From Gemmatimonas sp. (GTDB taxonomy: Bacteria; Gemmatimonadota; Gemmatimonadetes; Gemmatimonadales; Gemmatimonadaceae): a stretch of DNA of 64,000 nt. The number at the start of each line of letters is the position of its first letter. Position 1 is the first letter of the stretch. Positions 124 through 26,269 of the stretch are shown here, in pieces. The translations under genes and the position numbers were made by a program. The notes below the pieces were generated by a model that was not told the DNA's origin, made no database searches, and saw only the letters and a program-made list of their open reading frames with translations. The stretch covers positions 1 through 64,000 of the forward strand of contig JANNVQ010000038.1 of assembly GCA_031414535.1 (NCBI GenBank), in the 5' to 3' direction.

Positions 124-489
124 TTAGTTGCAGATCGGCTCGCCGTCGCGTGCGCCAGAACCGACGGTGATCGTGCAGGTACGCGTGGTGCCGCCGGCGT
201 ACGAAGCGACTGCGGTGAACGTGCCCGAGCCAACGCTGCCAACCGCCACAGTCACGCCAGACGAAGGCTGGTACTGGGCGGTGGTCAGGGCCGTGGTGTA
301 GGCCGAGTTGTCAGCGAAATACGCTTCCTGTGCCGTCACGAGGTTGCGGAGGTCGGCCTTCATCGTGGCGATGTACGCCTTTTCCTTCGTGTTGGCGAAC
401 TTCGGGATCGCGATGGCGGCAAGAATGCCGATGATGACGACCACGATCAACAGCTCAATCAGGGTAAAGCCCTTCTTGTTTGACAACAT
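124..489 (-). CDS. pilA: Type IVa major pilin (prepilin, 121 aa)
   Basis: MLSNKKG|FTLIELLIVVVIIGILAAIAIP class III signal with E5; C-terminal Cys pair; start reassigned to ATG 489 with a purine-rich RBS (GAGAGA) upstream. Confidence 0.93.
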   Translation of the reverse strand: MLSNKKGFTLIELLIVVVIIGILAAIAIPKFANTKEKAYIATMKADLRNLVTAQEAYFADNSAYTTALTTAQYQPSSGVTVAVGSVGSGTFTAVASYAGGTTRTCTITVGSGARDGEPICN

Positions 490-558
490 TCTGAATCTCT
501 CTGAATAGGGTGGGTGGGGCGAAACAGCTGAATCCATCAGCGTCACAATAGCATCTTT

Positions 559-574
559 TGCAAGAACTGCGCCA
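559..574 (-). promoter_or_regulatory. sigma54 (-24/-12) promoter of the pilin gene
   Basis: Minus strand TGGCGCAGTTCTTGCA matches TGGCAC-N5-TTGCW with exact GG-N10-GC spacing, about 70 nt before the pilin ATG; PilR-type activator encoded in the same locus. Confidence 0.85.
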
Positions 575-613
575 CTCTTGCTTTGACTCCATAACCTCTT
601 ATTCGATAACGCT

Positions 614-2434
614 TTACATATATCCGTCGGGATCGCTTGAGCCCGGTTCGATTGCAGATTGCGCCGAAGATTGCGTACCCCGCCTCGAAGGTACCTCGCG
701 GAAAACGTCAATGCGGAGCGGCCGGCCGCTTCGCTCAAACGGGCGACCCGAGCGCCAGAAGCGGTTTCGGGCATCCACGGAGTCCATCGCCACGAGCACA
801 GACTCGGCCACAGTCCGAAGGTTTGTCAGGCGGGGTTCACGCCAGCCGGAGGAATTGCCAATCAAGGCCAGGCTGCGCGCCGCCTCAAACCGCTGGAGGT
901 CCAAGAGACAAATCACGGTCCCGACCACCGCCGTCTGGGAATCCGGGTCGTCGCGCACGGCCGACTCAAAAAGTGGCAGGGCGCGGCCGCATTGGCGCTG
1001 GATTTGAAGCACCTGCCCGTACGCAAGGCGAGCCGGCACGTGCTCGGGGTACAGCGACAGCGCGCGCTGGAACAGCGTGTCCGCGACGTCGGGACGCCCG
1101 CCCAGCGCATTGAACTCGGCGAGCGCAAAGTGCGCGCGAAAATTGTTGGGTGATTCCACGGCAAGCACGCTGAACAAGGTGGGATTGTCGGCCCACGTCG
1201 GCGTGCGCGAGATGCTCCGCACGAGTCCCAACCCGACAACCGCAAGCATCAACGCCAAGGCAACGCCGCGGCGCGACTCCGTCCACTCCACCGCGGTATT
1301 CGCCAACCACAGCGCCAGGCAGGACGCGGCGACGCTCGGCAAGAAGAGGGTGCGCTCCGCGATGAGCACACCAATCGGGAACAGGATGTTCGCCACCGGC
1401 AGATAGGTGATGGCGAACCACGCCAATCCTAGAGCGATCAGCGGCACCCGACGGCGCCACGCGACGATGGCGACCACCACCAGCGCGAGGAGCAGGATGA
1501 TGCCCGGCACATGCCCCCAAGAAAGTTCGGGCAGGAGCGGCGTCTGTTGCGGCGAATAGTCGGCGTACAGTCGCGCGGGCCAGAGCATAAGACGCGTGAT
1601 CTCGGGCACGAGGGCGAGCATTACGAACCAGCGCTGGGGCGCGCTCAGAAAACGCAGGCCCCAGAACGGCTCATCCCCGGTGACTGCGCCCAGGATCTGC
1701 ATACGTATTAGGAGATACAAGGCGGCGATGACGCCAAGCCCCAACACCAGCAGACGCGTGCGCCGCCGTGCGATGGGCGTGCGGTCCGCACCAGCAGGCA
1801 GAGCCAAGAGCTCGAGTGCGGCCAGGAGAGCCGGCAAGACGATGCCGTGCTCCTTGATGAACAGCGAGACGCCGAAGATGAGTGCGATGGGTATGGCAGT
1901 CGCCCAGCCGATTGCGCCGCGTCTGCGTGCGCGCAGGAAAAGCGCCACCGACCCAAAGATTGCACAGGCCACCCATAGCTCAGCTTGGCCCACGACGTTG
2001 GCCACGGCCTCCACATGGACAGGATGTACCGCGAAAACGGCCGCTCCGAAGAGCGCGGGCCCTGCCGGCGCCAGGTTGCGCAACACCAGCAACAGGAGCA
2101 CACAGGCTGCCGTGTAGAGCGCGGCGTTCACCGCGTGGTAAATCAGTGCCGAACCGCCGCCAATCTTCCATTGCACCGCGTAGGCCCACACCGCGAGCGG
2201 GCGGTACAGGGCCGCGTGCCCTCGAGCAGGCCCCCAATAGGTCTCGCGGAAATACTGTGGCAACGGTTGGAGGCTGTTCACCGCGGGATTGTCGCGAACA
2301 ATGAAGATATCATCGTAGGCAAAGCCGTTACGCAGGCCTAATCCGGAAGCGGAAAAGGCGATGATCGCAACGATGACGGCTGCCAAAGCCGCGGAGTGCT
2401 TGCTCCACCAGGTAGGCAGCGCCGCGGAACTCAT
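614..2434 (-). CDS. TMTC-like GT-C membrane glycosyltransferase (DUF1736 type) with C-terminal TPRs
   Basis: Motifs FAYDD..I..N, YRPL, HPVHVEAVANVVG, KEHGI, IAERTLFLPS; many TM segments then TPR-like repeats. Confidence 0.8.
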   Translation of the reverse strand: MSSAALPTWWSKHSAALAAVIVAIIAFSASGLGLRNGFAYDDIFIVRDNPAVNSLQPLPQYFRETYWGPARGHAALYRPLAVWAYAVQWKIGGGSALIYHAVNAALYTAACVLLLLVLRNLAPAGPALFGAAVFAVHPVHVEAVANVVGQAELWVACAIFGSVALFLRARRRGAIGWATAIPIALIFGVSLFIKEHGIVLPALLAALELLALPAGADRTPIARRRTRLLVLGLGVIAALYLLIRMQILGAVTGDEPFWGLRFLSAPQRWFVMLALVPEITRLMLWPARLYADYSPQQTPLLPELSWGHVPGIILLLALVVVAIVAWRRRVPLIALGLAWFAITYLPVANILFPIGVLIAERTLFLPSVAASCLALWLANTAVEWTESRRGVALALMLAVVGLGLVRSISRTPTWADNPTLFSVLAVESPNNFRAHFALAEFNALGGRPDVADTLFQRALSLYPEHVPARLAYGQVLQIQRQCGRALPLFESAVRDDPDSQTAVVGTVICLLDLQRFEAARSLALIGNSSGWREPRLTNLRTVAESVLVAMDSVDARNRFWRSGRPFERSGRPLRIDVFREVPSRRGTQSSAQSAIEPGSSDPDGYM

Positions 2435-3180
2435 CGGAGGTTAAACCGCAGGATATGCCAAATGGCGGCCACGCCGTCCTTCCAGCCGATCTTCTTGCCC
2501 TCTGCGTAGGTGCGTCCAGAGTAGGAAATTGGCACCTCGAAAATGCGAACGTTGGCCTTGGACAATGCAGCCGTGACCTCAGGCTCAAAGCCAAAGCGGT
2601 CTGACGTGAGGTGCAGCGAGCGCGCGACGTCCCCACGGATGGCCTTGTAGCACGTCTCCATATCCGTGAGGTTCAGGTTCGTCATCATGTTGCTGAATGT
2701 GGTCAGCACGAAGTTGCCGACCGAGTGCCAGAAGTAGAGTACGCGGTGCGGTCCACCGAGGAAGCGCGAGCCGAACACAGCGTCGGCGCGTCCGTCCATG
2801 ATTGGCTCCAGCATCGCCGGCCAATCCGCGGGGTCGTACTCGAGGTCCGCGTCCTGCACGATGACGACGTTGCCTGTGCTGGCGGCGAGCGCCGTACGAA
2901 TGGCTGCGCCCTTCCCTCGGTTGTGCGGGTGCAGAAGCAGCAGGTCAATGCGGCCGGCCGCGTGCAGGCGCTGCAACTCCTCGCGCGTCCCATCCGTGGA
3001 GTAATCATCCACGCAAATCACCTGCTTGCGCACCGGCACCGCCTGCACGGCGTCGAGGATGGTGTGGATGGTGTTCCGCTCGTTGTAGACCGGAATAAGG
3101 ACCGAGAGCACGAGGTCCGCGGCTGGGAGCGGCGTGCGCCCGCGGATGCGCGTGACGCTGTTTGGTGTGGGATGCGTCAT
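2431..3180 (-). CDS. GT2 glycosyltransferase, DPM1/polyprenol-phosphate sugar synthase-like
   Basis: LIPVYNE, VDDYSTDGT, NRGKGAA, QDADLEYDP, GSRF, TDMETCYK motifs. Confidence 0.88.
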   Translation of the reverse strand: MTHPTPNSVTRIRGRTPLPAADLVLSVLIPVYNERNTIHTILDAVQAVPVRKQVICVDDYSTDGTREELQRLHAAGRIDLLLLHPHNRGKGAAIRTALAASTGNVVIVQDADLEYDPADWPAMLEPIMDGRADAVFGSRFLGGPHRVLYFWHSVGNFVLTTFSNMMTNLNLTDMETCYKAIRGDVARSLHLTSDRFGFEPEVTAALSKANVRIFEVPISYSGRTYAEGKKIGWKDGVAAIWHILRFNLR

Positions 3181-4751
3181 TGAGAAACGGAGATGAAGGA
3201 GCGGACCTTCTGGTCGGCAGGCGAGATATCCATAAAGCGGCGCGTGGAATCCAACTTAGCCTGCAGCAATGCCAGCAGATGAGGACCCTGGGGCATCATC
3301 ACGTAGGCATCCGGCGTGAAGCGCCGATCAATGGCCTCAAGGAAGGCGGCGCTCTGTTGCGTGGTTTTCTTCTCGAGGTGGTCACGTACGACCAGCATCT
3401 CGACGGGAATCACTTGCAGGCCGGTATACAAGGCAACCATCGGCGCGGCCTCGGTGCCAATGACCTTGCCTCGCAGCCGCGGCTCGCCGTTGACGTAGCG
3501 GACGATGACTTCGACGCGCGACGACATCTCGTGCGAGGCGCTGTTGGACCAGCCGCGCCACATACCTCGGACGTTGTACGCGGTGTAGCCAAGCACGAGC
3601 AGGCTCGCGCTGGCGAGCGCCGCCGCGGCAACGCGCGGCAGCCCACGCGCACGCAGCGCAGCCTGCGTCACGCGCAGACCATCGAGGGCGAACAGCAGCA
3701 AGAGCGGCCACACCGCCCAGATGAAACGATCAACCTGAAAGGGCCAGACTAGCACAATGCCCAAGTATCCGATCATCCCGAGCGTCAGAATGCGCGTCGC
3801 CGGCCGCCGCAGAGATCCCGCGATTCCGGCAGCGGTGGCGAGCAGGGCGAGCGCCGTTGCCAGCGGCCGCAGTGGCGTGTCGGCAAGGCGAGGCGTCAGA
3901 ATCGCACCGACAAAGCGCCAAGTGTCAGTGACGTTCTTCAAGACGACCGCTTGAAGAAAGGGGAGACCGCCCTCGCGATATCCGTCGGCAAGCCATTCGA
4001 GGTAGGGACCATACGAGCCGCGGAGCTCATCCGGGAAGCCGGGCGAGTGCTTCCACACGAAGTATTGCCAGGGCGCGAGCAATGCGATGACGACCACAGA
4101 GTAGATGACAAGCTCGCGCCAGCGGCGATCCAGCAAGAGCACCAGTCCGGTCCCCGCCACGAATGCGCCGGCGATGGTGCGCGTGAGGACCAGCACTCCC
4201 GCCAATGCGCCTGCGGCCACTGCCAAGCGCCACCCGCCCTCGGCATGCAGCCGACTCGCTCCGTAGATCGCGGGAAAGAACAGGGCGATGAATATGGGCT
4301 CGGACAGCAGCACGTTCGTGAGTACGTGCATCGGAACGCTCAGCGTGGCGGCGAGTATCGCCAGCGCGGCAGCCCAAGCCGGAAGTCCGAAGAGCCGTCG
4401 CGCCACGACCGTACCACCGGCGGCGGCAAGTGCAAGCATCAGCGGATTGATGGCCTTCAACAATCCGAGGTTGTTGGGGAACGCGGGCCCCAGCTTCCAT
4501 ACGAGGGCCAAGAGTCCCGGCCAGACCGGTGGGTAGTGAATGGCCGGCGGCATCCCCGGCAGCTGCGGGTACACGTAGCCATGACCTTCGGCGATTCCCT
4601 TCGCGACCAAGACGTAAATCGCGTCATCGAAGAACACGCCGATGAGGTCAGGCGTCATCGTGGCAAGGCCGACAACCAGCGTCAGCAAGCCAGCGATGGC
4701 CGCCGCCCTCCGCTCGCTCAGGCCGGTGAGTGCCCCTTGCCACTTATTCAC
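3177..4751 (-). CDS. GT-C fold integral membrane glycosyltransferase (PMT/ArnT-like)
   Basis: FFDDAIY acidic pair after TM1, HYPP motif, LSEP, more than 10 TM helices, soluble C-terminal domain. Confidence 0.7.
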   Translation of the reverse strand: MNKWQGALTGLSERRAAAIAGLLTLVVGLATMTPDLIGVFFDDAIYVLVAKGIAEGHGYVYPQLPGMPPAIHYPPVWPGLLALVWKLGPAFPNNLGLLKAINPLMLALAAAGGTVVARRLFGLPAWAAALAILAATLSVPMHVLTNVLLSEPIFIALFFPAIYGASRLHAEGGWRLAVAAGALAGVLVLTRTIAGAFVAGTGLVLLLDRRWRELVIYSVVVIALLAPWQYFVWKHSPGFPDELRGSYGPYLEWLADGYREGGLPFLQAVVLKNVTDTWRFVGAILTPRLADTPLRPLATALALLATAAGIAGSLRRPATRILTLGMIGYLGIVLVWPFQVDRFIWAVWPLLLLFALDGLRVTQAALRARGLPRVAAAALASASLLVLGYTAYNVRGMWRGWSNSASHEMSSRVEVIVRYVNGEPRLRGKVIGTEAAPMVALYTGLQVIPVEMLVVRDHLEKKTTQQSAAFLEAIDRRFTPDAYVMMPQGPHLLALLQAKLDSTRRFMDISPADQKVRSFISVSQ

Positions 4752-6124
4752 GCATCAACCCCATAACGGGCCAACTTGCGGTGCAAGGTCGAGGGGTCGA
4801 TGCCCAACACTTCGGCGGCGCGGGTCTTATTCCCCTGCTCGCTCTGCAATACCCACTGGATGTAGGCGCGTTCAATCACTTCAAGCGTAGGGTTGGCCGC
4901 CACACGCTCGGCAATCAACGGCTCACTGCGCCGCTCCGTGATGCGCTCCGGCAGTGCGCTCAGACTGACCACTGGGCCGTGGCTAAGGATGAGCGCTCGC
5001 TCGAGCGCGTTCTCCAGTTCGCGCACATTGCCGGGCCAGTTGTAATTCAGCAAGGCATCCGCGGCCTCGTCCGAGAGCGACTTGGGCGCCTCACCACGCA
5101 GTGCGGCACCACTGCTCAAGAACGATTCCGCGAGCAGGGGAATATCCTCACGGCGCTCGCGCAGTGGCGGCAAGTGAATGGCGATGACGTTGAGGCGATA
5201 AAACAGATCGCGACGGAAGCCGCCGCGCTTGATCTCTTCTTCGAGGTCGCGGTTGGTGGCGGCGATGATGCGGGTGTCGATGGCCTGCGGATCTGTGGCG
5301 CCCACCGGAATGACTTCGCGATGCTGCAGCACGCGCAGCAGCTTCACCTGAGTGGCCGGCGTGGTCTCACCGATTTCGTCGAGGAAGAAGGTACCCCCCG
5401 CAGCAGCGGTGAAGAGTCCGTCCTTATCGCGGACTGCACCAGTGAAGGACCCTTTCACGTGGCCGAACAGTTCGCTCTCGAGCAGTCCCTCGGGGAGCGC
5501 GCCACAGTTGATAGTGGCGAACGAGGCGTCAGCGCGGGGCGACAGTTCGTGGATGTAGCGGGCCACGACTTCCTTGCCCGTGCCGGACTCTCCGGTGATG
5601 AGCACCGTGGACTCGGTGTGGGCCACGGCTTCGGCGAGGTTCAGTGCATCCAACCAGGCCCGATGCGCGCCAACCGGAGCGCCAGCACCGCGGCGCTCAC
5701 GACGACGAATCTCCTTCTTGAGTGACTTGTTCTCCAGCCGCAGGGCGCGGTGTTCGGCGGCCCGTTTGAGGATGGCCACGAGTTCGTCATTACGGAACGG
5801 CTTTTGGATGTAATAGAAGGCCCCCGCATTCACGGCCTGCATTGCCGTCTGCAGGGTCGCCTGCGCCGTCATCAGGATTACCGGAACTTCAGCGTCGTGT
5901 TCGCGCGCGGCGTTGAGCACTTCCACGCCACCCACGCCAGGCATACGCACATCTGAGATGATGATGTCTGGCGTGAGCTGCGGAATCTTTTCTAGCGCGG
6001 CCCGTCCTCCGTGCGCCGTGTGTACGTCAAAGCCCTCGGCGCGAAGCAAAATCTCCAGTGTTTGGAGAATACCGGACTCATCATCCACAACGAGGACAGT
6101 GGGACGGCGTTCGGTCTCGGTCAC
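4748..6124 (-). CDS. pilR: sigma54-dependent response regulator (PilR/NtrC family)
   Basis: Receiver domain (VVDDE, SDVRMP), AAA+ GESGTGKE, GSFTGA, FFLDEIGE, WPGNVREL, C-terminal Fis-type HTH. Confidence 0.88.
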   Translation of the reverse strand: MTETERRPTVLVVDDESGILQTLEILLRAEGFDVHTAHGGRAALEKIPQLTPDIIISDVRMPGVGGVEVLNAAREHDAEVPVILMTAQATLQTAMQAVNAGAFYYIQKPFRNDELVAILKRAAEHRALRLENKSLKKEIRRRERRGAGAPVGAHRAWLDALNLAEAVAHTESTVLITGESGTGKEVVARYIHELSPRADASFATINCGALPEGLLESELFGHVKGSFTGAVRDKDGLFTAAAGGTFFLDEIGETTPATQVKLLRVLQHREVIPVGATDPQAIDTRIIAATNRDLEEEIKRGGFRRDLFYRLNVIAIHLPPLRERREDIPLLAESFLSSGAALRGEAPKSLSDEAADALLNYNWPGNVRELENALERALILSHGPVVSLSALPERITERRSEPLIAERVAANPTLEVIERAYIQWVLQSEQGNKTRAAEVLGIDPSTLHRKLARYGVDA

Positions 6125-7800
6125 GTGGCAACTCCGGAGGGCGCACCCTCGGTCGGCAGATAAACAGTGAAGTGTGTTCCATCTTGGTCGCTATCCACGA
6201 GGATGACGCCTCGGTGCGCCTCGATGGCGCGGTGGACAACGGCAAGGCCGAGTCCGCTGCCACCGGGCTTGCTGGTCGCGAATGGTTCGAAGAGTCGGTC
6301 CTGCATATCCGGCGGAATGCCTTCTCCACGGTCACGTACGTCGATGACGAAGGCGTCTGAATGAAACGGGAGTCCGGTTGGGCATTCCGACGCCGCGAGG
6401 CGCCGAAGCGTGACGTCCACTTCTCCCGTCTCACCGGACGCCTGGCAAGCGTTTAGAACCAGGTTGAAGACCGCGCGGTGCAGCAGGTCTTCGTCGCCGG
6501 CCAGCGTGGCTGGATTGTCGGGCAGTAGTAGCTTCACCGTCACGGCCGCACCCCGGTCAGGGTGTGCGCCGGCAAGCGTGGTCGCGGCCCGAACGATATC
6601 CCGCAAATCGAGTTCGTCCCGCCGTGCTGCTTGTACGCGCGCAAAATCCAAGAACTCCGACAGCAAACGGGAAAGACGGTCTGTCTCTCGCGTGATCAGA
6701 TCGCCAAGCACTCGCTCGTCGGCGGTGGCGGCTTGGCGACGCGAGATCTGCTCCACGGCCGAGCGAATGCTCGCGAGCGGGTTCTTGATCTCGTGGGCCA
6801 GCGAGGCCGAGAGTTCGGCGACGGCCTCGAGCCGCTGGGCTCGCAAGCGCAGCGCTTCCAAACGCTTCTCATCAGAGATGTCCTGCACGATGACGGTCGT
6901 GGCACCGCCGACTGGACGTAGGTCGCCCGTCACGGACGTGGTGGTAATGCCCAATGGCATGACGCGACCCGCGTGCATGAGCGTGCCCTCCGACCGGGCG
7001 CTCGTCCGCTGTTCACCGATATGCGAGTCGATAGCTGCGGCCACGATTGGTGCCGAGGTCCGCAATCGCTCAAGGATCGGTGCGCCAGACAGCGTGTCGA
7101 AGGGCACACCCAACATCTGGCTCGCCGCTGGGTTGGCATAGAGCAGACGGCCCAGATCATCCACCGTGATGATGCCCGCCCGGATGTTGGCGAGGATGTC
7201 TGCAGCGCGGAGGCGAGCGCTGGCCAATTCCGCCTGCAGCTGCTCGCGCCCCAATCCGGCTTCCTGCAGTCGGGCGGCGATGTAGCTGGTGCCAATCACC
7301 ACGAGCACGAACACCACGAGCTGCAGCAGCAGCGGCACGGTGATGTCGCCGCCGCTCACCAAGAAGGCATCGCCCACATAGAGCACACTGCCCAGCATGG
7401 CCAGCAGCAGGGAGCTGCCGATGGGCAGGAGCAGGGCGGCGGTGGCGTTGACGAGGATGTAGAGCGCGGCAAATTGGGAATTACCGCCGCCGCTCAGGTG
7501 CACGATGACCGTGATGAGCAGCAGGTCGTGCACGAACTGCAGATAGAGGAAGCCAGGGCCCGCCTTCTGCCGGTTTACCTCGGTCCGGATGTACGAAACA
7601 GCCGTAAGCGCCATGGCCACCACGAAGGCCGAGGCCGCGATGACGGTGCTGACCGGGTTCGCGAAGAGGGCGAAGACCAGGGCCCACACGAAGTTGGCAC
7701 TCGCCGCAACGAGGCGGCCGACATAAATACCATTGAGCAGACGGCGGGAATCGAGCACCGCCAGCATTCGCTCAGATGTCCCCCCTCGCTCGACGCTCAC
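6121..7800 (-). CDS. pilS: Sensor histidine kinase, PilS-like (TM + PAS + HisKA + HATPase)
   Basis: About 6 TM helices, PAS-like segment, LAHEIKNPL, NLVLNA, DRGEG, FEPF, GSGLGL; overlaps the pilR start. Confidence 0.85.
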   Translation of the reverse strand: MSVERGGTSERMLAVLDSRRLLNGIYVGRLVAASANFVWALVFALFANPVSTVIAASAFVVAMALTAVSYIRTEVNRQKAGPGFLYLQFVHDLLLITVIVHLSGGGNSQFAALYILVNATAALLLPIGSSLLLAMLGSVLYVGDAFLVSGGDITVPLLLQLVVFVLVVIGTSYIAARLQEAGLGREQLQAELASARLRAADILANIRAGIITVDDLGRLLYANPAASQMLGVPFDTLSGAPILERLRTSAPIVAAAIDSHIGEQRTSARSEGTLMHAGRVMPLGITTTSVTGDLRPVGGATTVIVQDISDEKRLEALRLRAQRLEAVAELSASLAHEIKNPLASIRSAVEQISRRQAATADERVLGDLITRETDRLSRLLSEFLDFARVQAARRDELDLRDIVRAATTLAGAHPDRGAAVTVKLLLPDNPATLAGDEDLLHRAVFNLVLNACQASGETGEVDVTLRRLAASECPTGLPFHSDAFVIDVRDRGEGIPPDMQDRLFEPFATSKPGGSGLGLAVVHRAIEAHRGVILVDSDQDGTHFTVYLPTEGAPSGVAT

Positions 7801-7878
7801 AGGATCTCCGAGTGTTGCAATTCACAACGACTTTAAGGTGACGAACGCTGTGGCAATTTGCAACACAAGGCCCTTGTA

Positions 7879-8331
7879 ATGGCTCCCCGTGAAATCTGGG
7901 ACGAGGAAGGCCGCCTTCTCGTGAACGGCCGGGTACGCATCCCCGCTGCCGAACTCGCGGTGAAGGCCACACGCTCGGGGGGACCGGGGGGGCAGCACGT
8001 GAACACCAGCTCCACCCGAGTCGAGGTGGTGTGGGTCATGCGCACATCCAACGCCTTGTCCGACACGCAGCGCACGCTGCTCGAGACCAACCTCGCGCCC
8101 AAACTCGACGCCAGTGGCGCGGTGCGCGTGGTGGCCGCTGATACGCGCAGCCAGTCCCAGAATCGCCTTCTCGCGCTCTCGCGCCTGGCCAACCTGGTTC
8201 GGGAAGCCTTGGTGGTGCCGAAGACCCGTCGCGCCACCGCACCGAGCCGGGGGCAGAAGCAACAGCGGCTCAACGAAAAAAAACGGCGGTCACACGTGAA
8301 GCGTGACCGCCGCCATAAAGACGACGAGTAG
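7879..8331 (+). CDS. arfB: Alternative ribosome-rescue peptidyl-tRNA hydrolase ArfB
   Basis: RSGGPGGQHVN motif, RSQ..NR, basic C-terminal tail. Confidence 0.92.
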   Translation: MAPREIWDEEGRLLVNGRVRIPAAELAVKATRSGGPGGQHVNTSSTRVEVVWVMRTSNALSDTQRTLLETNLAPKLDASGAVRVVAADTRSQSQNRLLALSRLANLVREALVVPKTRRATAPSRGQKQQRLNEKKRRSHVKRDRRHKDDE

Positions 8332-9094: not shown

Positions 9095-10570
9095 CTAACG
9101 AGTCTCGCGGCTCCGTGTTTCACCCGTTCCATACGCCGGAGTTCCCAGCGCGACGGCGAGGGTGCCTAGGGCACGCGCGCGGCGCGACACCAAGGTCGCC
9201 AGCCGAAGCCGCTCGTCGAGTAACGTGCGCTCGCGCAGGTTCACGATGAGTAACGAGACCTCGCCTGCCTCAAAGCGATTCTGCTCCGCCGCCAGCAACT
9301 GCGTCTGCATTGCCACGAGTGATTCCTGCCGAACCAGCTGCGCGTCCACTACTTCAATCTCAATCAACGCACGTTGCGCTTCGACTTCCACATCGCGGCG
9401 GATGCGATCGCGCTCCAGCCCGAGTGCGCGGGCTCTGGACTCCGCGACTCTCAGGCGCCCTACCTCACGGCGCAAGAACAGGGGCAAGCGCACATTGCCA
9501 CTGAACTTGCTGTCTTCACCCCCGAAGCCAAGGCCGCTGACGTCACCAAGGGAACTCCCAGCTGCGAGGCCGCTGAACTCGACGCTTGCCGACGGGAGGA
9601 TGCCGGTGGCCGCGAGACGACGTGAGGCATCGGCTTGGCGCCAGCGGGCCGTGGCCTGCTGCACGGCGGGATGGCGCGCTACGAGATAGCGCAGACGATC
9701 ACCGTTCCCCGTGAGTGCCTCGGCTTCGCTGCGCAGCTCAGCGCGTTCCGATGGCACCGCACCGGCCGGCAGCGCATCGGGCACACCGTCGGCCGTCCAC
9801 CACCAGGCCTCAGCAATCAAACGCGCGATCCGCGCAGCCGCCGCGGCGTCCAGTCGCAGTACTTCGCGGGCGGTCAGTTCGGCATTCGCTTCCACTGAAT
9901 CAATCTCTGCGGCATCGCCGGTCTCGACGCGGCGGCGAATGGCATGAAGGCGAAAGCGCGCCAGCTCCACGCCTTCGGAGGCGATGCGCGCTCGGCGCTC
10001 AGACTCGGCCCACTGGCCCCAGTCGCGGGCCGCGGACTGCAACACGCGCGCGATGGCCAAGTCGCGCTCGGCGTCTGCCGCATCGCGCGCCACCTCGGCC
10101 TGCCGCAAGGCCGTGCGCCGCTCGTCGGTGAGCAGACGCGGACCGATGGGAAGCATCACGCCGAATGAAAGCAAGCCAGCGCCCGGCGTGGCGCGCTCGG
10201 GATTGATGATCTGCCCAGCGGCGCGCTCCCAACCAAGCTTGAAGTCCACTCCCCACGGCGTCGGCACCACGAGACGTGCGTCAAACTCATCGTAATAGCC
10301 GATGCCTTTGAACCGCTTGGTCTCCCACAGCGCCGAGATGTAGGGGTCGAACCCACCGCGAGCGGCCAAGGCCTCGCCGCGCACTTGATCGCGCGCCGCC
10401 GACGCTTGCTTCACGCTCGGATGATTCTCCGCCGCACGCGCAATGAACGACTCGAGCGTGATCTCAACGCGGGCGGCTTGCGAGCTACTCTGTGCGGCGA
10501 GTGACGGGGCGGCGAGTGACGGCGCGGCGAGCGCAAGCACACGCAGCGCGCCGAAGAGAGACGTCCGCAT
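9095..10570 (-). CDS. TolC family outer-membrane channel
   Basis: Start reassigned to ATG 10570 (overlaps the hlyD-like stop); signal peptide, two OEP-like helical repeats, RFEAGEVSLL motif. Confidence 0.85.
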   Translation of the reverse strand: MRTSLFGALRVLALAAPSLAAPSLAAQSSSQAARVEITLESFIARAAENHPSVKQASAARDQVRGEALAARGGFDPYISALWETKRFKGIGYYDEFDARLVVPTPWGVDFKLGWERAAGQIINPERATPGAGLLSFGVMLPIGPRLLTDERRTALRQAEVARDAADAERDLAIARVLQSAARDWGQWAESERRARIASEGVELARFRLHAIRRRVETGDAAEIDSVEANAELTAREVLRLDAAAAARIARLIAEAWWWTADGVPDALPAGAVPSERAELRSEAEALTGNGDRLRYLVARHPAVQQATARWRQADASRRLAATGILPSASVEFSGLAAGSSLGDVSGLGFGGEDSKFSGNVRLPLFLRREVGRLRVAESRARALGLERDRIRRDVEVEAQRALIEIEVVDAQLVRQESLVAMQTQLLAAEQNRFEAGEVSLLIVNLRERTLLDERLRLATLVSRRARALGTLAVALGTPAYGTGETRSRETR

Positions 10571-11889
10571 CAAATTTTTGGCTTGCTCGAGAACGGCGCG
10601 CCGCTCGGACTGATCAACCCGCTCTGCGGAATCGACGGCGGGAAGCCGTTGACCGTACGCCAGACTTCGAACCACACGCGCACCTCGCGCAACATGGCCC
10701 AGCCGCGCACACCCGAGCCCATTAAGAGCTCGCGCGGCCACGCCACCTGCGCGGTGTCGGGTGCCACGAGCACACGGTAGTAGCCATTGGGCAGCGCCAC
10801 TTGATCCACGACGGCCACCCGGCCACCAAAAGTACCGAGCGACGCGTTGGGCCAGCCGCTGAACTGCAGCGCGGGCCAGCCCGCAAACTCAAGACGTACT
10901 TCATCGCCGAGCCTGAGCAAGGGCACGTCGCGCGCATTCACTTGCAAAGCCACCGCCAGCGTGGGCGCGGCAGCCTGCACCGTAGCGATGGCTTCACCGT
11001 CCTTGACCACCTCGCCGATACCGGCGCGCAGGGCGCGCACCACAATGCCATCACGCGGGGCGCGAACCACGAGCAAACCCTGACGCTCCGTCATGTTGGC
11101 TTCGCCCGTCTCCATCTTGGCAATCTCCCCCATACCATCGGCCACCTCAGCGAGCGTGGCTCGACGCTCGCTCTCTACCTTCGCGATTTTCTCGGCGAAG
11201 TCCGCCTCTACTCCCGAACGCTCTGCGCGCGCCGTTGCCAAGGCAGCACCCTGCTCCACCGCGAGCGCGGACGCACGCTGCTGGCGCTGGCGCGCCGCCT
11301 CGAAATCCGCACGCGAGCGGAGACCATCGTTCACTAGGGCCTGCATGCGCTCCAACTGCACGGTAGCAATGGAGTCCTCAAGCGTGGCCGCCCGCAACGT
11401 GGCCGTAATCTGTTGAATGCGATTGTCGGCGCGGATGCGCCCGAGCGTACGCAAGGAATCCAAGGCAATAGCCTGATCGGCCAGTGCAGCAGCCTTGGCG
11501 CGCTTCTCCTGAACGGACTGACGCTTGGCCTGCACCTGCTCGCCCAAGCGGTCCAGCGTGAGCGGATCAAGGTAGGCTTCCTTCACTTCCGACATCGCCA
11601 TAATCGGATCGCCGACCTTTACTGAGTCGCCTTCCTGCACATACCACTCAGAGATGCGGCCGCCCACGGCGGCCACGGCCTCCTGCGGACGGTCCTCCGG
11701 TTTCAGAGCCGTGACCTCACCAGCCCCGGCCACGTTCTGCTGCCACGGCAAGAACGCCACGATCAACAACACGAGCAACACGCCCATCATCCACGTCCCC
11801 AGCACGCGGAAGGATGGTTGACGTGCAAGCAGCTTCACCGACTCGAGCGAGGAGCCGCCGCGATCAAGGAGATTGAGCGAGTCTGCCAT
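10570..11889 (-). CDS. HlyD family membrane-fusion protein
   Basis: N-terminal TM, GRISEWYVQEGDSVKVGD lipoyl half-motif, coiled coil, VRAPRDG. Confidence 0.88.
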   Translation of the reverse strand: MADSLNLLDRGGSSLESVKLLARQPSFRVLGTWMMGVLLVLLIVAFLPWQQNVAGAGEVTALKPEDRPQEAVAAVGGRISEWYVQEGDSVKVGDPIMAMSEVKEAYLDPLTLDRLGEQVQAKRQSVQEKRAKAAALADQAIALDSLRTLGRIRADNRIQQITATLRAATLEDSIATVQLERMQALVNDGLRSRADFEAARQRQQRASALAVEQGAALATARAERSGVEADFAEKIAKVESERRATLAEVADGMGEIAKMETGEANMTERQGLLVVRAPRDGIVVRALRAGIGEVVKDGEAIATVQAAAPTLAVALQVNARDVPLLRLGDEVRLEFAGWPALQFSGWPNASLGTFGGRVAVVDQVALPNGYYRVLVAPDTAQVAWPRELLMGSGVRGWAMLREVRVWFEVWRTVNGFPPSIPQSGLISPSGAPFSSKPKI

Positions 11890-14081
11890 TACGCGGCGCT
11901 CCGCGAGGACGACATCAGTTCGCGCAAAAATATGTCGTTCGCCAAGTCCTTCCATGGCGCGGCAGCGTGCGTCACGCCCTCTCGTAGCACCAGCACGGTA
12001 TCAACCGCGGCAAACACTTCCGGATCGTGTGAGACGATGAAAAGCGTCCAGGGCGCGTCGGGCCCAGTCAGCACCTTCACAAGGTCGTGACGCGCGGCTG
12101 ACTCCACCGATGCCAGCAGTTCATCGATCACCAGGAGTCGCGGCCGGGCCGCGATGGCCCGCGCGACGAGAATCTTGACTCGCAAGGTCGTGGGCAGGCC
12201 CCGGCCCGCCGAGACCAGCGGCGTGCGCAGTCCGAGCGCGAGTGCCTGCACCTCATCGAAGGCGCCTACGCGCTCGAGCGCATGCATCACTTCGGCCGGG
12301 CCAACACCTAAGCGGCCGAGGGCGACGTTCTCTTCCACCGTCCCTTCGAATACCTCGTTTTGCCCGAACACCAGGCCGATGCGGTCGCGCATGGTCGTAG
12401 GATCCACGTCACGCAGCGTAATGCCCGCCGCCTGCACCTGACCAGCGTAGTGCGGCAGCAAACCCGACACCACACCCAGCAACGTGGACGCGCCGGCACC
12501 ATCCGGACCCGTCACCGCAATCTTGGCTCCCGCCGGCACATCGAGTGTGATGCCGCTCAGGGCGGGACGGCTCGCTGCGGGATAGTTGTACGACACATCC
12601 GTGAGCTTCACCGACAGTCCCGTCCCATCATCAGGCAGGGTGAGGCCGCCCACCGATTCCAAGGGGAGATCAGTCACGCCGCCGAGTTTGTAGACCGCAG
12701 TCAGGAGGTCGTACATCTCGTCGAGCGAATCCACCAGCTTCTCGACGCCCGCCAGCACGGTGACCACCACAAGCTCCGCCGCCACAAACTGGCCCAGCGT
12801 AATCTGCCCGCCAATCACCAGCCAGGATCCAAGGATCAACAGCGAACCAGTGATGACTGCTTTCAAGCCAACCGCTGAAAGTGCCTGCCACACGATCACG
12901 CGGAAATGCCGCTGCCGATAGCGCAAATACCCGGTGACATGCTCGTCCATTCGCTCCAACGCCGGCGTGGCGCGGCCGGCCGCCTTGAAGGAACTCACCG
13001 TACGTGCGAGTTCCTCGAGCCAATGCACGGCGCGGTACTTGTACTTGCTCTCCATCAGGCTCGTCTCGAGGCCCTTGGGATACGTCAGCCACAGGACAAC
13101 CCAGAAGGCCAACGCGAGGCCAATCCAGAACACAATGAAGTACGGGTGATAAAAGCCGAGCAAGAGCAGGCCGAACAGCACCTGCAAGGCCGCCGTCGTG
13201 GCGCCCGTGAGCAACTTGCCGAGCGACTTCTGGATGGTGATCACTTCGAAAAAGCGGTTCATTCGTTCCGGCAGATCGTCCTTCAGCCACTGCTCCACGC
13301 TCACGCGCGGCACTCGCAGCGAGAACTCCAACGCAATGCGCGCAAAAATGCGCTGCTGGATGCGCTCCACTGCGGCGAGCTGCAGCACTTGCAGCACTCC
13401 CGTCGCGATGGTGCCGATAATCACGAACGTGATGAGAATGACGATGGGCTGCAGGAAGAGTCCGCCCGACACCAGTCCGATGATTGCCTGCACCCCCACC
13501 GGCAGCGTCAGCGAAAACAGACCGACAAGCGTGGCGTAGGCATAGACGAGACCGATATTGCCCTTCTCGAGGACTAGTAGCTCCCAGAGTCGCTCAGTTG
13601 GCGTGCGGGAGAGCGCGTCGGCCGCAGGGCCGAGCACCGCTTCGGGTAGCACCTTCGCAGGAAAAAGCGCACCGAGCACGCCGCCTGCTCCCGCCAGACG
13701 CGTGAACACCCCGTCCGCGTGCAGCTGCTCATTGAGGACCTCGCCGGCCGCTGTCACGATGCGGAGCGTGACGCTTTCTCCGCGCACTTCATGAACCACA
13801 GCGCCTAGGACGCCCTGCTGCGGGTGCTCGGCGACCAGCACAATTGGCGCGGACGCCCCGCGGATGACACGGCTGAACTCTTCGCCCGCGTATGACTGGC
13901 GAAGGTAGGCTACGCCGCAGCGGCGCCCGCTCTCGACGATGCTCTCGACGAGGTCGGCAGGAGAGACTTCAGGGAGATGACAGCGGCGCAGATCGTCGCG
14001 CCACGCAGCGCCGGGGTCTTCAAGACCCAACAGTTCAGCAACTTGTTGCGTGAGCAGGACGGCGCGAGGCATCGGTACCAT
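11889..14081 (-). CDS. Type I secretion ABC transporter (C39-like N-domain + TMD + degenerate NBD)
   Basis: Six-TM ABC membrane domain, GQITLGQFVA; NBD has Walker B LLVIDE and H-loop, but Walker A reads GPDGAGAST. Confidence 0.82.
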   Translation of the reverse strand: MVPMPRAVLLTQQVAELLGLEDPGAAWRDDLRRCHLPEVSPADLVESIVESGRRCGVAYLRQSYAGEEFSRVIRGASAPIVLVAEHPQQGVLGAVVHEVRGESVTLRIVTAAGEVLNEQLHADGVFTRLAGAGGVLGALFPAKVLPEAVLGPAADALSRTPTERLWELLVLEKGNIGLVYAYATLVGLFSLTLPVGVQAIIGLVSGGLFLQPIVILITFVIIGTIATGVLQVLQLAAVERIQQRIFARIALEFSLRVPRVSVEQWLKDDLPERMNRFFEVITIQKSLGKLLTGATTAALQVLFGLLLLGFYHPYFIVFWIGLALAFWVVLWLTYPKGLETSLMESKYKYRAVHWLEELARTVSSFKAAGRATPALERMDEHVTGYLRYRQRHFRVIVWQALSAVGLKAVITGSLLILGSWLVIGGQITLGQFVAAELVVVTVLAGVEKLVDSLDEMYDLLTAVYKLGGVTDLPLESVGGLTLPDDGTGLSVKLTDVSYNYPAASRPALSGITLDVPAGAKIAVTGPDGAGASTLLGVVSGLLPHYAGQVQAAGITLRDVDPTTMRDRIGLVFGQNEVFEGTVEENVALGRLGVGPAEVMHALERVGAFDEVQALALGLRTPLVSAGRGLPTTLRVKILVARAIAARPRLLVIDELLASVESAARHDLVKVLTGPDAPWTLFIVSHDPEVFAAVDTVLVLREGVTHAAAPWKDLANDIFLRELMSSSRSAA

Positions 14082-21906: not shown

Positions 21907-23103
21907 TTATTGCACCGCGTTAATCATGTCGAAGATTGGCAAGTACATCGCGACGACCATGCCGCCGACGACGACGCCGAGGAACACGATCATCATCGGT
22001 TCCATAAGGGCGAGAAGGCCACCGACCGCCGCGTCCACTTCTTCATCATAGAAGTCGGCAATCTTGCTGAGCATTTCGTCGAGACCACCGGTCTGCTCAC
22101 CGACGGCGATCATTGAAATCACCATTGGCGGAAACACACCAGACTTGGCGAGCGGAGCGGAAATTGTATCACCGCCTGCAATTGAGGCACGGGACGCCAT
22201 GATGGCGTCGGAGACAACACGGTTGCCGGCCGTCTTGGCCGTGATCTCGAGGCCGTCGAGAATGCTGACGCCCGAGCTGATGAGCGTGCCCAAGGTGCGC
22301 GTGAAGCGCGACACCGCCGACTTGCGGAGCACGTCACCGAGCACTGGCGCCTTCAGCAACAGCTTGTCGATGACGAGCTGACCATCGCTGGTCGCGTAGT
22401 AACTCTTGAACGACCGGAAGAGCACCACGCCGCCGATGATGATGGCCCACCAGAAGCCCTGCAGGAACTCCGACATCGCGATGACGATGCGCGTCGGTAG
22501 CGGCAGCGCGAGGCCCACGGACGCGAACATCCGTTGGAAGGTCGGAATGACGAAGAGCAAGAGCACGGTGATGGCCGAGCCGGCGACACCCGAGATGACG
22601 CCGGGGTAAATCATCGCGCCCTTCACCTTGCGGACGAGCGCGTCGTTCTTTTCCATGAACGTCGCGAGGCGCAGCAGAATGGTGTCGAGAATACCGCCGG
22701 CCTCGCCCGCCGCCACCATGTTCACATAGAGCTCGGTGAAGGCGTTGGGGTGCTTGCCGAGGGCGTCGGCCACGGTGTGGCCCGATTCCACGTCAAAGAC
22801 CACCTGACGCGTCACGGCCTGCAACACCGGGTTTTCCGACTGCTTGGATAGAATGTCAAGGGCCTGCACGAGCGGCAGACCCGAGTTAATCATCGTGGAA
22901 AACTGCCGAGTGAAGATCACGATGTCGCGCATCGAGATCGAACCCTTGGTCGTGGGTGCCTTCTTGGACTGCTCCTCGACCTTGACGACGGCCATCCTCA
23001 GCCGCTTGAGCTGATTGACGACGTCTTCCTTGTTCGCGGCCTCCATGGTCGCGGACTTGAGTTCACCGGTGGCGGTGCGGGCGGTGTAGCTAAATGCTGG
23101 CAT
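21907..23103 (-). CDS. pilC: Type IV pilus platform protein PilC (T2SS F family)
   Basis: FTRQFSTMINSGLPL, AGEAGGILD, KGAMIYP, VGEQTGGLDEML. Confidence 0.95.
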   Translation of the reverse strand: MPAFSYTARTATGELKSATMEAANKEDVVNQLKRLRMAVVKVEEQSKKAPTTKGSISMRDIVIFTRQFSTMINSGLPLVQALDILSKQSENPVLQAVTRQVVFDVESGHTVADALGKHPNAFTELYVNMVAAGEAGGILDTILLRLATFMEKNDALVRKVKGAMIYPGVISGVAGSAITVLLLFVIPTFQRMFASVGLALPLPTRIVIAMSEFLQGFWWAIIIGGVVLFRSFKSYYATSDGQLVIDKLLLKAPVLGDVLRKSAVSRFTRTLGTLISSGVSILDGLEITAKTAGNRVVSDAIMASRASIAGGDTISAPLAKSGVFPPMVISMIAVGEQTGGLDEMLSKIADFYDEEVDAAVGGLLALMEPMMIVFLGVVVGGMVVAMYLPIFDMINAVQ

Positions 23104-23129
23104 ATAGAATCCTCCTTAAGGCCTGACGA

Positions 23130-24293
23130 TCATCGACGCGTTCCCGCCACAGCTCCGGGCTTGGACGCCCCACCTGAGGCCGGTCCCTCGTCGGTCACGG
23201 ACTTGCCAATCATGCGCAGGAACTCGTTCGGGTCGCTCGACACGCGCAGACACTCGTCCTCGTCCACTTCGCGCGCCGTGTAGAGGGCGTAGAGCGAGTC
23301 GTTGAGGGTCTGCATGCCGTACTTCTTGCCGGACTGCATCATCGAATAGACTTGGTGAATCTTGTCGTCGCGGATGAGGGCGCGAATGGCCGGCGTCACG
23401 ACCAAAATCTCGGCGGCCATCGCGCGGCCCTTGCCCGATCGCTTGGGCAACAGCGTCTGCGTGATGATGCCCTCGAGCACGAACGAGAGCTGCGCGCGCA
23501 CCTGCGACTGCTGGTGGCTCGGGAAGACGTCAATGATGCGATTGATGGCTTCGGCCGCCGAGTTGGTGTGCAGGGTGGCGAAGGCCAAGTGGCCCGTCTC
23601 GGCGATGGTCAGGCCCGCGTGGATGGTCTCGTGGTCGCGCATTTCGCCAACGAGCACCACGTCCGGATCTTCACGCAGCGCGTACTTGAGCGCCGAGCCG
23701 AAGCTCTTGGTGTCGGAGCCCACCTCGCGCTGGTTGACGATGCACCCCTGATGCTTGTGGATGAACTCGATGGGGTCTTCGACCGTGAGGATATGCCCAC
23801 GGCGCTCGCGGTTGATCTTATCGATCATCGCGGCGAGGGTGGTGGACTTGCCCGAACCCGTGGGACCGGTGACGAGCACGAGGCCGCGCGGCTTCTCGGC
23901 CAGCTTGGCGATGACCGGCGGTAACTTGAGGTCCGCAAAAGTCTTGATGGAGAACGGAATCTGCCGCAGCACGATGGACACGCAACCGCGCTGCTTGAAG
24001 CAGTTGCCGCGGAAACGTGCGAGATTTTGGATGCCGAACGAGAAGTCCAGCTCGTCATCCATCTCGAAACGCTTCTTCTGGTTCTCCGTGAGCACCGAGT
24101 ACGCCAACTGCAGCGTGTCCTTGGGCTGCAGCACGACTTCGCCCTTGGACGGCACGATGTCGCCGTCAATGCGCATCATCGGCCGTGCACCGGCGGTGAT
24201 GTGGAGGTCGGAGGCGCCGCGTTCGATCATTTCTTCGAGCAGGACTCGGAGATTGACGGCTTGGGCGGGGGGTGCGGCTTGGGGAGCGGTCAT
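23130..24293 (-). CDS. pilT: Type IV pilus retraction ATPase PilT
   Basis: GASDLH, GPTGSGKSTT, EDPIEF, REDPD, TLHTNS, AIRALIRD; start reassigned to 24293. Confidence 0.95.
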   Translation of the reverse strand: MTAPQAAPPAQAVNLRVLLEEMIERGASDLHITAGARPMMRIDGDIVPSKGEVVLQPKDTLQLAYSVLTENQKKRFEMDDELDFSFGIQNLARFRGNCFKQRGCVSIVLRQIPFSIKTFADLKLPPVIAKLAEKPRGLVLVTGPTGSGKSTTLAAMIDKINRERRGHILTVEDPIEFIHKHQGCIVNQREVGSDTKSFGSALKYALREDPDVVLVGEMRDHETIHAGLTIAETGHLAFATLHTNSAAEAINRIIDVFPSHQQSQVRAQLSFVLEGIITQTLLPKRSGKGRAMAAEILVVTPAIRALIRDDKIHQVYSMMQSGKKYGMQTLNDSLYALYTAREVDEDECLRVSSDPNEFLRMIGKSVTDEGPASGGASKPGAVAGTRR

Positions 24294-24297
24294 TAAA

Positions 24298-24432
<135 letters not shown>

Positions 24433-24433
24433 A

Positions 24434-26269
24434 TTACGCGCTTGTTTCGGTGATGACCTGCTCCAGTGAAGTAATGCCCTTCCACACCTTGACCAAGCCG
24501 TCCATACGCAGCGTTAGCATGCCTTCCTCGATGGCGAAGTCCTTGATCTCGGCGGCGCCGACATTTTGCAGAATCAGCTTGCGCAGGCCGGGCGTCATGT
24601 TGAGCACTTCGTAGGCGCCTTGGCGACCGCGCGAGCCAGAGCCCTTGCACTTGTCGCAGCCTTTGCCGCGGAAGAACGGCATGTCTACGACCTTGGTGTC
24701 GAGCGTGATGTTGGCCAGCAGAGGCTTCACATCTTCCGGCGCACGGGTCTTGAGGCCAGCGATCGCGTCCTCTTTGAATCGGATCTCGCCGATCGTGGTC
24801 GTATTCGTCCACTTGGCGGCCGCGATTTCCTCGTCCGACAGGCGATACTGCTCCTTGCAGTTGCTGCAAATGCGGCGCAACAAACGCTGCGCCAGCACGA
24901 GGTTCAACGCCGAGCTCACGTTGAAGGGCTCGAGTCCCATGTCCAACAGACGCGTGATGGTCTCGGCCGTGGAATTCGTGTGCAGCGTGGAGAGCACCAA
25001 GTGACCCGTGAGCGCGGCCTTGATGGCGATGCCACCCGTCTCGAGGTCACGGATTTCGCCGACCATGATGATGTTCGGATCCTGACGCAAGAACGCCTTC
25101 AGTGCGGCCGCGAATGTCATGCCGATTTCGTTGCGCACCAACACCTGATTGACGCCGTAGAGGTTGTACTCCACGGGGTCCTCGGCGGTCATGATGTTCG
25201 TCTCGACCTTGTTGATGAGCATGATGCTCGAATACAGCGTGGTCGTCTTGCCGGAACCTGTGGGGCCCGTGACGAGCACCATGCCGTAGGGGCTCCGCAC
25301 CGCGTGCATCAAGTCGCGCTCGGCGGCCGGCTCGATGCCAAGCTTATCGAGATCCATCAGGTTGTTCTGCGCGAGAATACGCAGCACGACCTTCTCGCCA
25401 AACAGCGTGGGCAAGGTGGAGACGCGGAAGTCCACCACCTTGTTGGCGGCGAGCTTGAGCTTGATGCGCCCGTCCTGGGGAACGCGGCGCTCGGCGATGT
25501 TGAGCGCGCTCATAATCTTGAAGCGCGAAATGAGCGCCGGCTGCATCTTCTTCGGCGGCTTCATCACTTCTTCGAGGTGTCCGTCCACGCGATACCGCAC
25601 GCGTAGATCCTTCTCGAAGCACTCGAAGTGGATGTCCGACGCACCCATCTTCACGGCGTTGGTGAGGATGGCATTGATGAGCTTCACGACTGGGGCATCG
25701 TCCACGGCGGCGGCCAACGCCGTCGCCGACATTTCCTCTTCTTTCTCCTGCAGGACCTCGATGTCGCCGTCGCCGCCCTCGAGTTCCTCGATCTCGGTGA
25801 GCAACGCCGACATCTGCACGTCGTTCGAGTCGTAGTGCTTCTCGATGACGTTGCGCAACGTGAACTCGCCCGCGATGACCGGGAAGATGTCGTAGCGCGT
25901 GATGAACTTGAGGTCTTCGATGACGCCGAGGTTGGTCGGGTCGGCCATGGCGACCGTGAGCGTGCGGCCGTCGCGCTTCAGCGGGAGCACGAGGTTCTTC
26001 ACGGCGAGGTCCGCCGGCACCAGCTTCACGATCTTGCTGTCTACCTCGAACTTCGAGAGGTCCACGGCCGGCATCTTGAACTGACGCGCCAGCGTTCGGG
26101 TGAGCTCGTTTTCCTGGATGAAGCCGAGCTTCACCAAGTTGTAGCCCACGCGCGTCCCGTTCTGGCGTTGCTCATCGAGCGCCTTCTGGAGTTGCTCCCG
26201 CGTGATGAGCCCCTCCTTGAGTAGGAGATCGCCAATCCGCTCACCACCTGCGCTTGCCGCTGCGGTCAT
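24434..26269 (-). CDS. pilB: Type IV pilus assembly ATPase PilB with N-terminal MshEN domain
   Basis: RIGDLLLKEGLI..., ASDIHFE, GPTGSGKTTT, RQDPN, two CxxC motifs. Confidence 0.95.
   Translation of the reverse strand: MTAAASAGGERIGDLLLKEGLITREQLQKALDEQRQNGTRVGYNLVKLGFIQENELTRTLARQFKMPAVDLSKFEVDSKIVKLVPADLAVKNLVLPLKRDGRTLTVAMADPTNLGVIEDLKFITRYDIFPVIAGEFTLRNVIEKHYDSNDVQMSALLTEIEELEGGDGDIEVLQEKEEEMSATALAAAVDDAPVVKLINAILTNAVKMGASDIHFECFEKDLRVRYRVDGHLEEVMKPPKKMQPALISRFKIMSALNIAERRVPQDGRIKLKLAANKVVDFRVSTLPTLFGEKVVLRILAQNNLMDLDKLGIEPAAERDLMHAVRSPYGMVLVTGPTGSGKTTTLYSSIMLINKVETNIMTAEDPVEYNLYGVNQVLVRNEIGMTFAAALKAFLRQDPNIIMVGEIRDLETGGIAIKAALTGHLVLSTLHTNSTAETITRLLDMGLEPFNVSSALNLVLAQRLLRRICSNCKEQYRLSDEEIAAAKWTNTTTIGEIRFKEDAIAGLKTRAPEDVKPLLANITLDTKVVDMPFFRGKGCDKCKGSGSRGRQGAYEVLNMTPGLRKLILQNVGAAEIKDFAIEEGMLTLRMDGLVKVWKGITSLEQVITETSA

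Follow-up and report, generated by a model that had tools for sequence, protein, structure and literature searches.

A TMTC-family glycosyltransferase gene between pilR and pilA as part of a probable, optional pilin O-glycosylation module in Gemmatimonadota

The window analyzed here comprises 64,000 nucleotides from a Gemmatimonas sp. (assembly GCA_031414535.1, contig JANNVQ010000038.1, positions 1 to 64,000); it is the start of contig C38 of genome G000, which is 98.4% complete. Its first 8 kb hold, on the minus strand and in this order, pilS, pilR, three glycosyltransferase-like genes, a sigma54-type site and the major pilin gene pilA. The pilS-type sensor histidine kinase (6121-7800; 559 amino acids [aa]; 6TM_PilS, PAS, HisKA, and HATPase_c domains) marks the fixed upstream border of the slot between pilR and pilA. 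The pilR-type sigma54 response regulator (4748-6124; 458 aa), which has one close ortholog per genome, served as our anchor. There follow a GT-C glycosyltransferase without TPR (3177-4751; 524 aa), with a DD after the first transmembrane segment and a C-terminal alpha/beta domain; a GT2 protein of the DPM-synthase/GtrB/ArnC type (2431-3180; 249 aa), predicted to be a polyprenyl-phosphate-monosaccharide synthase; and a TMTC-family protein combining GT-C and TPR parts (614-2434; 606 aa), which is encoded by a single-copy gene and is the predicted pilin O-glycosyltransferase. The predicted acceptor is the type IVa major pilin (124-489; N_methyl domain and GFTLIEL motif), a prepilin of 121 aa and 114 aa when mature.

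The first-pass annotation of this DNA had described the five genes from pilS to the TMTC-like gene as chained by 4-bp start/stop overlaps and ending just before a sigma54 pilin promoter. Indeed, all four junctions are 4-bp overlaps (in turn GTGA, GTGA, ATGA, and ATGA), and 40 nt beyond the TMTC-like stop codon the sequence TGGCGC-N5-TTGCA (574-559) resembles a sigma54 -24/-12 site. This putative site has one mismatch and is the best match on the minus strand of the first 9 kb. Among 62 loci of relatives, 41 have the same motif in the 220 nt preceding a pilA; a search of the reverse strand gave one such locus. Given the gene overlaps and the recurrence of the motif, the three enzyme genes are probably read together with pilSR, and pilA separately from its own promoter. 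A 216-aa open reading frame (ORF) starting at 774 was dropped as the pilin because the sigma54 site lies inside it, and the start at 489 is most likely the correct one. A weakly supported terminator-like hairpin was located 3' of pilA (74-92) by a pattern scan that returned 10 sites, compared with 6.5 ± 2.3 in shuffled sequences. The composition of the cassette (GC 0.63 to 0.65) is like that of the rest of the window, and a horizontal island was rejected on this measure.

The Pfam model TMTC_DUF1736 (PF08409) did not match the TMTC-like protein, which scored below the curated cut-off, and among 81 homologs only 24 matched it at an E value of ≤0.1, weakly (best 0.0045). With the TPRs excluded, residues 1-420 retrieved the eukaryotic PF08409 protein P0270 (phmmer, E 2.3e-8). 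Moreover, the family profile aligned to P0270 over 420 columns, covering the whole N-terminal membrane domain (hhalign probability 99.5%, E 2.7e-22). The AlphaFold (AF2) model, with a predicted local distance difference test score (pLDDT) of 90.9, consists of a GT-C membrane domain followed by TPRs, which Pfam matches and the model place at about residues 430-550; the model helices before residue 414 are compatible with 11 transmembrane segments. The best structural matches were Pmt1-Pmt2, the oligosaccharyltransferase OST and AglB (Z 20.9; root mean square deviation 4.4 to 5.6 Å over 350 to 372 residues), with ArnT more distant (Z 16.7) and TMTC structures absent from the PDB matches listed. 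PDB sequence searches with the protein and with its profile gave TPR matches only (for the profile, among the best 60 of 211 matches). We conclude that by homology the protein belongs to the TMTC family, and the identity first proposed from the sequence thus withstood profile comparison, the DUF1736 model itself being unmatched.

In a profile search of cluster representatives, the best 150 matches were close relatives, with no named distant ones among them. Feature searches of the ESM Atlas returned unnamed or PMT_2 clusters in several phyla, which are leads only, and no homolog was found in the plasmids, phages, and viral contigs searched. A FastTree phylogeny of the family contained two PF08409 rows and was too thin to place the eukaryotic branch. 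Fusion forms were also encountered, with a second membrane domain ahead of the TMTC-like domain (P0268) or a TMTC-like/TPR protein joined to a sulfatase (P0273).

To compare the protein with animal TMTCs, we used the motif table (M1 to M7) in PMC7801869, where the mannose-contact roles of M2 and M3 derive from a model. Conserved in the TMTC-like protein are D41-D42 (M1), K194-E195 (M4), D292-Y293 (M5, with W replaced by Y), and E360-R361 (M7). In the 81 pilin-linked homologs, DD is present in 79 to 80, KE in all 81, and ER in 80 to 81. The mannose-contact motifs are altered: M2 reads HAALYRP instead of SHKSYRP, and M3 reads QAE instead of RxD, position 152 being E in 81/81 pilin-linked homologs and position 150 being Q in 39 and R in 33. 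The protein thus shares with animal TMTCs the homologous membrane domain, M1, M4, M7, M5 as DY, and C-terminal TPRs; it differs from them in falling below the DUF1736 cut-off, in M2 and M3, in TPRs limited to about residues 430-550, and in its predicted acceptor, a pilin and not a cadherin.

The GT2 protein was most similar among PDB sequences to a dolichol-phosphate-mannose synthase (5mlz, E 2.6e-14), followed by 6yv7, sll0501, and ArnC, in agreement with the proposed relationship to DPM1. It very likely makes a polyprenyl-phosphate monosaccharide, as judged from these similarities. All curated models scored below cut-off, and the best of them, which include AglJ, a GalNAc-lipid synthase, and ArnC, represent enzymes with differing lipid sugars. 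The designation mannosyltransferase in the first-pass annotation was therefore not supported, in view of the altered M2 and M3 and of these several lipid sugars: mannose has no particular support as the sugar of the TMTC-like enzyme, nothing singles it out, and we regard it as a tentative candidate. The GT2 subfamily was present in 21 of 22 TMTC-positive genomes searched (further genomes or ones lacking the slot) versus 21 of 39 TMTC-negative ones. Thus, the TMTC-like enzyme nearly always has a GT2-type donor synthase, which also serves other systems. Neither a GtrA-type flippase (PF04138) nor a DprE1-type ALO-domain gene (PF04030, which we took as a proxy for DprE1) was matched in G000, in which positive controls were matched, and the cassette itself contains no flippase gene.

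In the TPR-less GT-C enzyme, D42 is invariant and D43 nearly so, following the first transmembrane segment, and 21 of 64 homologs weakly matched PMT_2 (E ≤ 0.1). Its profile had no match among PDB sequences. The predicted model (pLDDT 96) matched OST (Z 23.9), PglB (21.1), ALG12 (20.8), Pmt (20.7), and ArnT (19.6), with AglB also among the best. Since the models of both GT-C proteins rank the same enzymes first, the fold identifies the acceptor of neither, and we do not take the structural ranking to prove that either acts on protein. The enzyme may extend the glycan or, with equal chance, modify the pilin on its own; that it serves some other acceptor is slightly less likely.

The TMTC-like protein found matches in 103 of 151 genomes of the phylum (E ≤ 0.001), the weakest of which probably concern the TPRs only. 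Stretches following pilR were retrieved for 80 loci, half of them (40) in genomes with a homolog near pilR and the other 40 in genomes without a strong match; one of the latter genomes (G102) has a copy elsewhere and was dropped, which left 39 negatives. In addition, 40 homolog loci away from pilR were fetched. Among the 77 named loci, 57 include a pilin gene at a distance of at most 6 kb; of the remaining 20, 13 had under ~2 kb of sequence on one side. Counted by genome, 48 of the 62 inspected, a partly selected sample, have a TMTC-like copy within 6 kb of pilA, and 4 further ones have a copy in the pilR slot and no scored pilA. The gene keeps beside pilA in both orientations, as one to three tandem copies, and adjoins it also where pilR is elsewhere. 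The conserved linkage to pilins expected at the outset was thus observed. At L194, L195, L197, and L200, all from one genus, TMTC-like copies stand off pilA and before a class-V aminotransferase gene, at L194 also with a GT2 gene.

In the 40 TMTC-positive slots, the gene is accompanied by GT-C and GT2 in 33, by GT-C only in 3, by GT2 only in 1, and by neither in 3. Of the 39 negative slots, 25 are free of all queried genes (one of these holds an Eco57I-type restriction-modification methylase gene, L138:1656-4117, and another an IS200-like gene, L126:11642-12238), 6 contain a gene for a SpeE-domain membrane protein, 4 contain GT-C with or without GT2, and 4 have no pilA in reach. On a pilR tree of 79 rows (FastTree), the TMTC-like gene was gained or lost no fewer than 15 times. 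We conclude that the three genes are an optional filler of the pilR-pilA slot that is gained and lost. A fixed order, in which the TMTC-like enzyme primes and the second GT-C extends, had been assumed originally; it was not upheld, since each gene occurs without the other (TMTC-like without GT-C in 4/40 loci, GT-C with or without GT2 in the mentioned 4/39) and the fold is uninformative.

Seven loci (L120 [9422-12514], L121, L133, L134, L136, L139, and L183), six of them from genomes without a TMTC-like gene, have a reversed gene for the SpeE-domain protein, a membrane protein of ~1020 aa with a spermidine-synthase domain, between pilR and pilA; in L164 and L168 the gene has the forward orientation. 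The protein may be an alternative pilin-modifying enzyme. Furthermore, an S-adenosylmethionine (SAM) methyltransferase gene, usually just before GT2, is part of the cassette in L154-L158, L162, L163, L165, L169, L171, L182, and L187, hinting at a methylated sugar. Cassettes of other relatives contain further GT-C families.

The pilin encoded here has 19 Ser/Thr in its last 60 residues. This count, noted originally, is correct and carries no weight alone: ordering by Ser/Thr fraction puts the pilin at rank 28 of 62 among those of relatives, and pilins of genomes without a TMTC-like gene reach a per-locus mean of 19, so that we rejected it as evidence. Between slots, the mean number of Ser/Thr in the last 60 residues was 16.8 with the TMTC-like gene versus 13.9 without it (32 versus 33 loci). 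In phylogenetic generalized least squares (PGLS), which kept 62 of 79 loci after exclusion of loci lacking a complete pilin and of pilins whose tail resembled a frameshift product, the Ser/Thr fraction was higher by 0.035 beside a TMTC-like gene (p 8e-5; 0.005 under Brownian motion; 32 versus 30 loci). The shift persisted with the GC content at third codon positions (GC3) as a covariate. No comparable shift was detected in PilR (p 0.19) or in minor pilins (p 0.63, n = 30). We take the shift as moderate support for the pilin as acceptor. A complex prediction of the TMTC-like enzyme with the pilin scored 0.09 (mark 0.32) and was counted neither for nor against. A second major-type pilin gene (G000:C57:152823-153284), whose product is 121 aa long when mature and has 15 Ser/Thr among its last 60 residues, could encode a second acceptor.

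A system of this kind is known. TfpW of Pseudomonas aeruginosa group IV/P. paraeruginosa is a 646-aa GT-C protein with 11 predicted transmembrane segments, a DDX motif in loop 1 that is essential, and a C-terminal TPR domain in the periplasm; it is encoded next to pilA in several species and adds D-arabinofuranose to multiple Ser/Thr (10.1101/2020.04.19.049825). Its best template was ArnT (10.1101/2020.04.19.049825), as it was for human TMTCs according to PMC7801869. The TMTC-like protein has in common with TfpW the GT-C part, the loop-1 DD, the C-terminal TPR, and a near-equal length (646 versus 606 aa); the cassettes share the position adjoining pilA, a lipid-phosphate monosaccharide donor (predicted here), and exchangeability, horizontal exchange of accessory cassettes of the TfpW kind being described in PMC12369383. 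The loop-4 motif YX6PFX7P of TfpW may correspond to I279-X6-P286-A-X7-P295, which keeps both prolines and their spacing and differs in Y and F; the family consensus at 279 is F, and P295 is present in 116 of 124 homologs. Unlike tfpW, which is downstream of pilA, the TMTC-like gene is upstream of it and overlap-coupled to pilSR, and the Gemmatimonadota cassette holds a GT2 donor enzyme and a second GT-C, with one to three tandem paralogs in relatives. Since the PF04030 and PF04138 searches found no counterpart of the D-arabinofuranose pathway of TfpW (DprE1/E2, GtrA-like), we rejected arabinofuranose as the donor sugar. The likeness, drawn from the published description, makes it well supported that the cassette works like TfpW. 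Because TfpW shares the architecture (DD, TPR, position beside pilA, and 11 predicted transmembrane segments with which the model here is compatible), the cassette is a variant of the TfpW kind and not an alternative to TfpW, with which it had been contrasted in the first-pass annotation; and because TfpW already does the same job with the same architecture, the cassette is not new in kind. Pairing of a GT2 lipid-sugar synthase with a GT-C enzyme, as here, is also known from DPM synthase and from three-component periplasmic systems of the GtrABC type (PMC11127046), which differ in having a flippase; moreover, the acceptor predicted here is a protein. A literature search that covered few subscription papers turned up no paper that mentions TMTC together with TfpW, and in titles and abstract starts no description of this locus in Gemmatimonadota.

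Taken together, the three genes between pilR and pilA probably constitute an optional pilin O-glycosylation module that combines a GT2-made lipid sugar with a TMTC-family transferase. Undecaprenyl phosphate would be charged with one sugar by the GT2 enzyme; on the periplasmic side, the TMTC-family enzyme would pass this sugar to Ser/Thr residues of pilin held in the membrane, with the TPR domain possibly binding the substrate. Several observations weigh against this proposal. Most loci away from pilR (27 of 40) lack a pilA within 6 kb, and 10 of the 62 genomes have no linked copy in the sequence fetched; members of the family can therefore function apart from pilA or with different substrates. 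A tandem array of three TMTC-like genes, in a different class of the phylum, adjoins the gene of a large secreted Fn3/Ig-like protein, a cadherin-like candidate substrate (L221:10563-14501; L222:2-3349). The slot also takes unrelated genes (SpeE-domain protein, methylase, IS200-like gene), no GtrA-type flippase was matched, and the fold ranking cannot separate protein from glycan acceptors. Finally, Ala, Pro, and Phe of the pilins shift too; with one pilin per locus, the Ser/Thr shift had p values of 0.003 to 0.007 at the best-fit lambda and of 0.14 to 0.19 under Brownian motion; and independent pairs (4.7 same versus 0.3 opposite, median p 0.125) were not significant.

The unlinked paralogs, the Fn3/Ig-like neighbors, the mixed content of the slot, and the genome-wide 8 PMT_2 and 12 GT2 matches would all fit enzymes that act elsewhere in the envelope, on proteins such as beta-sandwich surface proteins or on glycans such as lipopolysaccharide and exopolysaccharide, the slot being a hotspot of surface modification; animal TMTCs, too, are protein O-mannosyltransferases that act on cadherins (PMC7801869). 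We consider this distinctly unlikely for the gene studied here, which is single copy in G000, because the TMTC-like gene keeps beside pilA through inversions and where pilR is elsewhere, because unlinked copies mostly nest within pilin-linked clades (FastTree), and because the Ser/Thr shift concerns the major pilin and not PilR or minor pilins. Two of the unlinked paralogs stand directly after pilB-pilT-pilC or next to a PilT-like ATPase gene (L213:1517-8150; L211:6299-11500). There is still less chance that the pilin is modified otherwise, by an N-linked glycan, by an amino-, methylated, or decorated sugar, or with the TPR-less GT-C priming and the TMTC-like enzyme acting second. Such a scheme would accommodate the loci with GT-C and without the TMTC-like gene, the OST/PglB-like model of GT-C, the methyltransferases in the cassettes of many relatives, and the diverse curated GT2 models. 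It is at odds with the loci in which TMTC-like precedes pilA without GT-C, with the Asn content of the pilins, which does not shift (p 0.75), and with a joint model that links the Thr shift to the TMTC-like gene (p 0.002) rather than to GT-C (p 0.6). Most improbable is a noncatalytic membrane chaperone or scaffold for pilus assembly: TPR domains do scaffold, inactive proteins of GT-C fold such as PIG-U exist (PMC7801869), as do nonglycosylating pilin accessory proteins such as TfpY (PMC11841053), but the catalytic-type DD, KE, and ER are near-invariant, a lipid-sugar synthase co-occurs, and pilins are found in many genomes that lack a TMTC-like gene. In summary, what the first-pass annotation observed at the locus was confirmed, and its interpretation as pilin glycosylation was partly supported.

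Other genes of the window and of related loci complete the picture. A pilB (MshEN)-pilT-pilC-type operon is located at 21910-26269 on the minus strand, 14 kb from pilS. Divergent from pilS, 7858-8331 on the plus strand encodes an RF-1-domain protein, presumably the ribosome-rescue factor ArfB, and 9095-14081 on the minus strand encodes a type I secretion-like trio of ABC transporter, HlyD-type adaptor, and outer membrane efflux protein. In relatives, a second pair of sensor kinase and sigma54 regulator genes, then minor pilin genes, often follow 3' of the pilA genes (e.g., L120-L141 and L154-L170).

It is conceivable, and on balance unlikely, that TfpW, the Gemmatimonadota enzymes, and animal TMTCs form one family whose widespread bacterial members are pilin O-glycosyltransferases supplied by interchangeable lipid-sugar donors, which here would be a DPM1-like donor of mannose. 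If true, a bacterial DPM1-TMTC pathway would act on Thr-rich beta-strands and be a plausible source of cadherin O-mannosylation; it would offer a soluble-substrate model for TMTC enzymology, and the pilR-pilA slot would be a phage-driven locus for switching pilus glycotypes, with pilin Thr content coevolving with the enzyme. The value of the present results lies in the slot and Ser/Thr patterns and in tying bacterial TMTC homologs, whose full-length prokaryotic forms are noted as uncharacterized in PMC7801869, to a testable substrate. The three-gene module and its 114-residue candidate substrate could be rebuilt in the laboratory as a simple system for bacterial TMTC function; none of the PDB matches listed is a structure from this family. 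By analogy with the TfpW modification, which blocks several pilus phages according to 10.1101/150227, the likely purpose is masking of the surface against pilus-binding phages, and with this precedent the pattern of gain and loss suggests that pilus glycotypes vary within this abundant and little-studied phylum.

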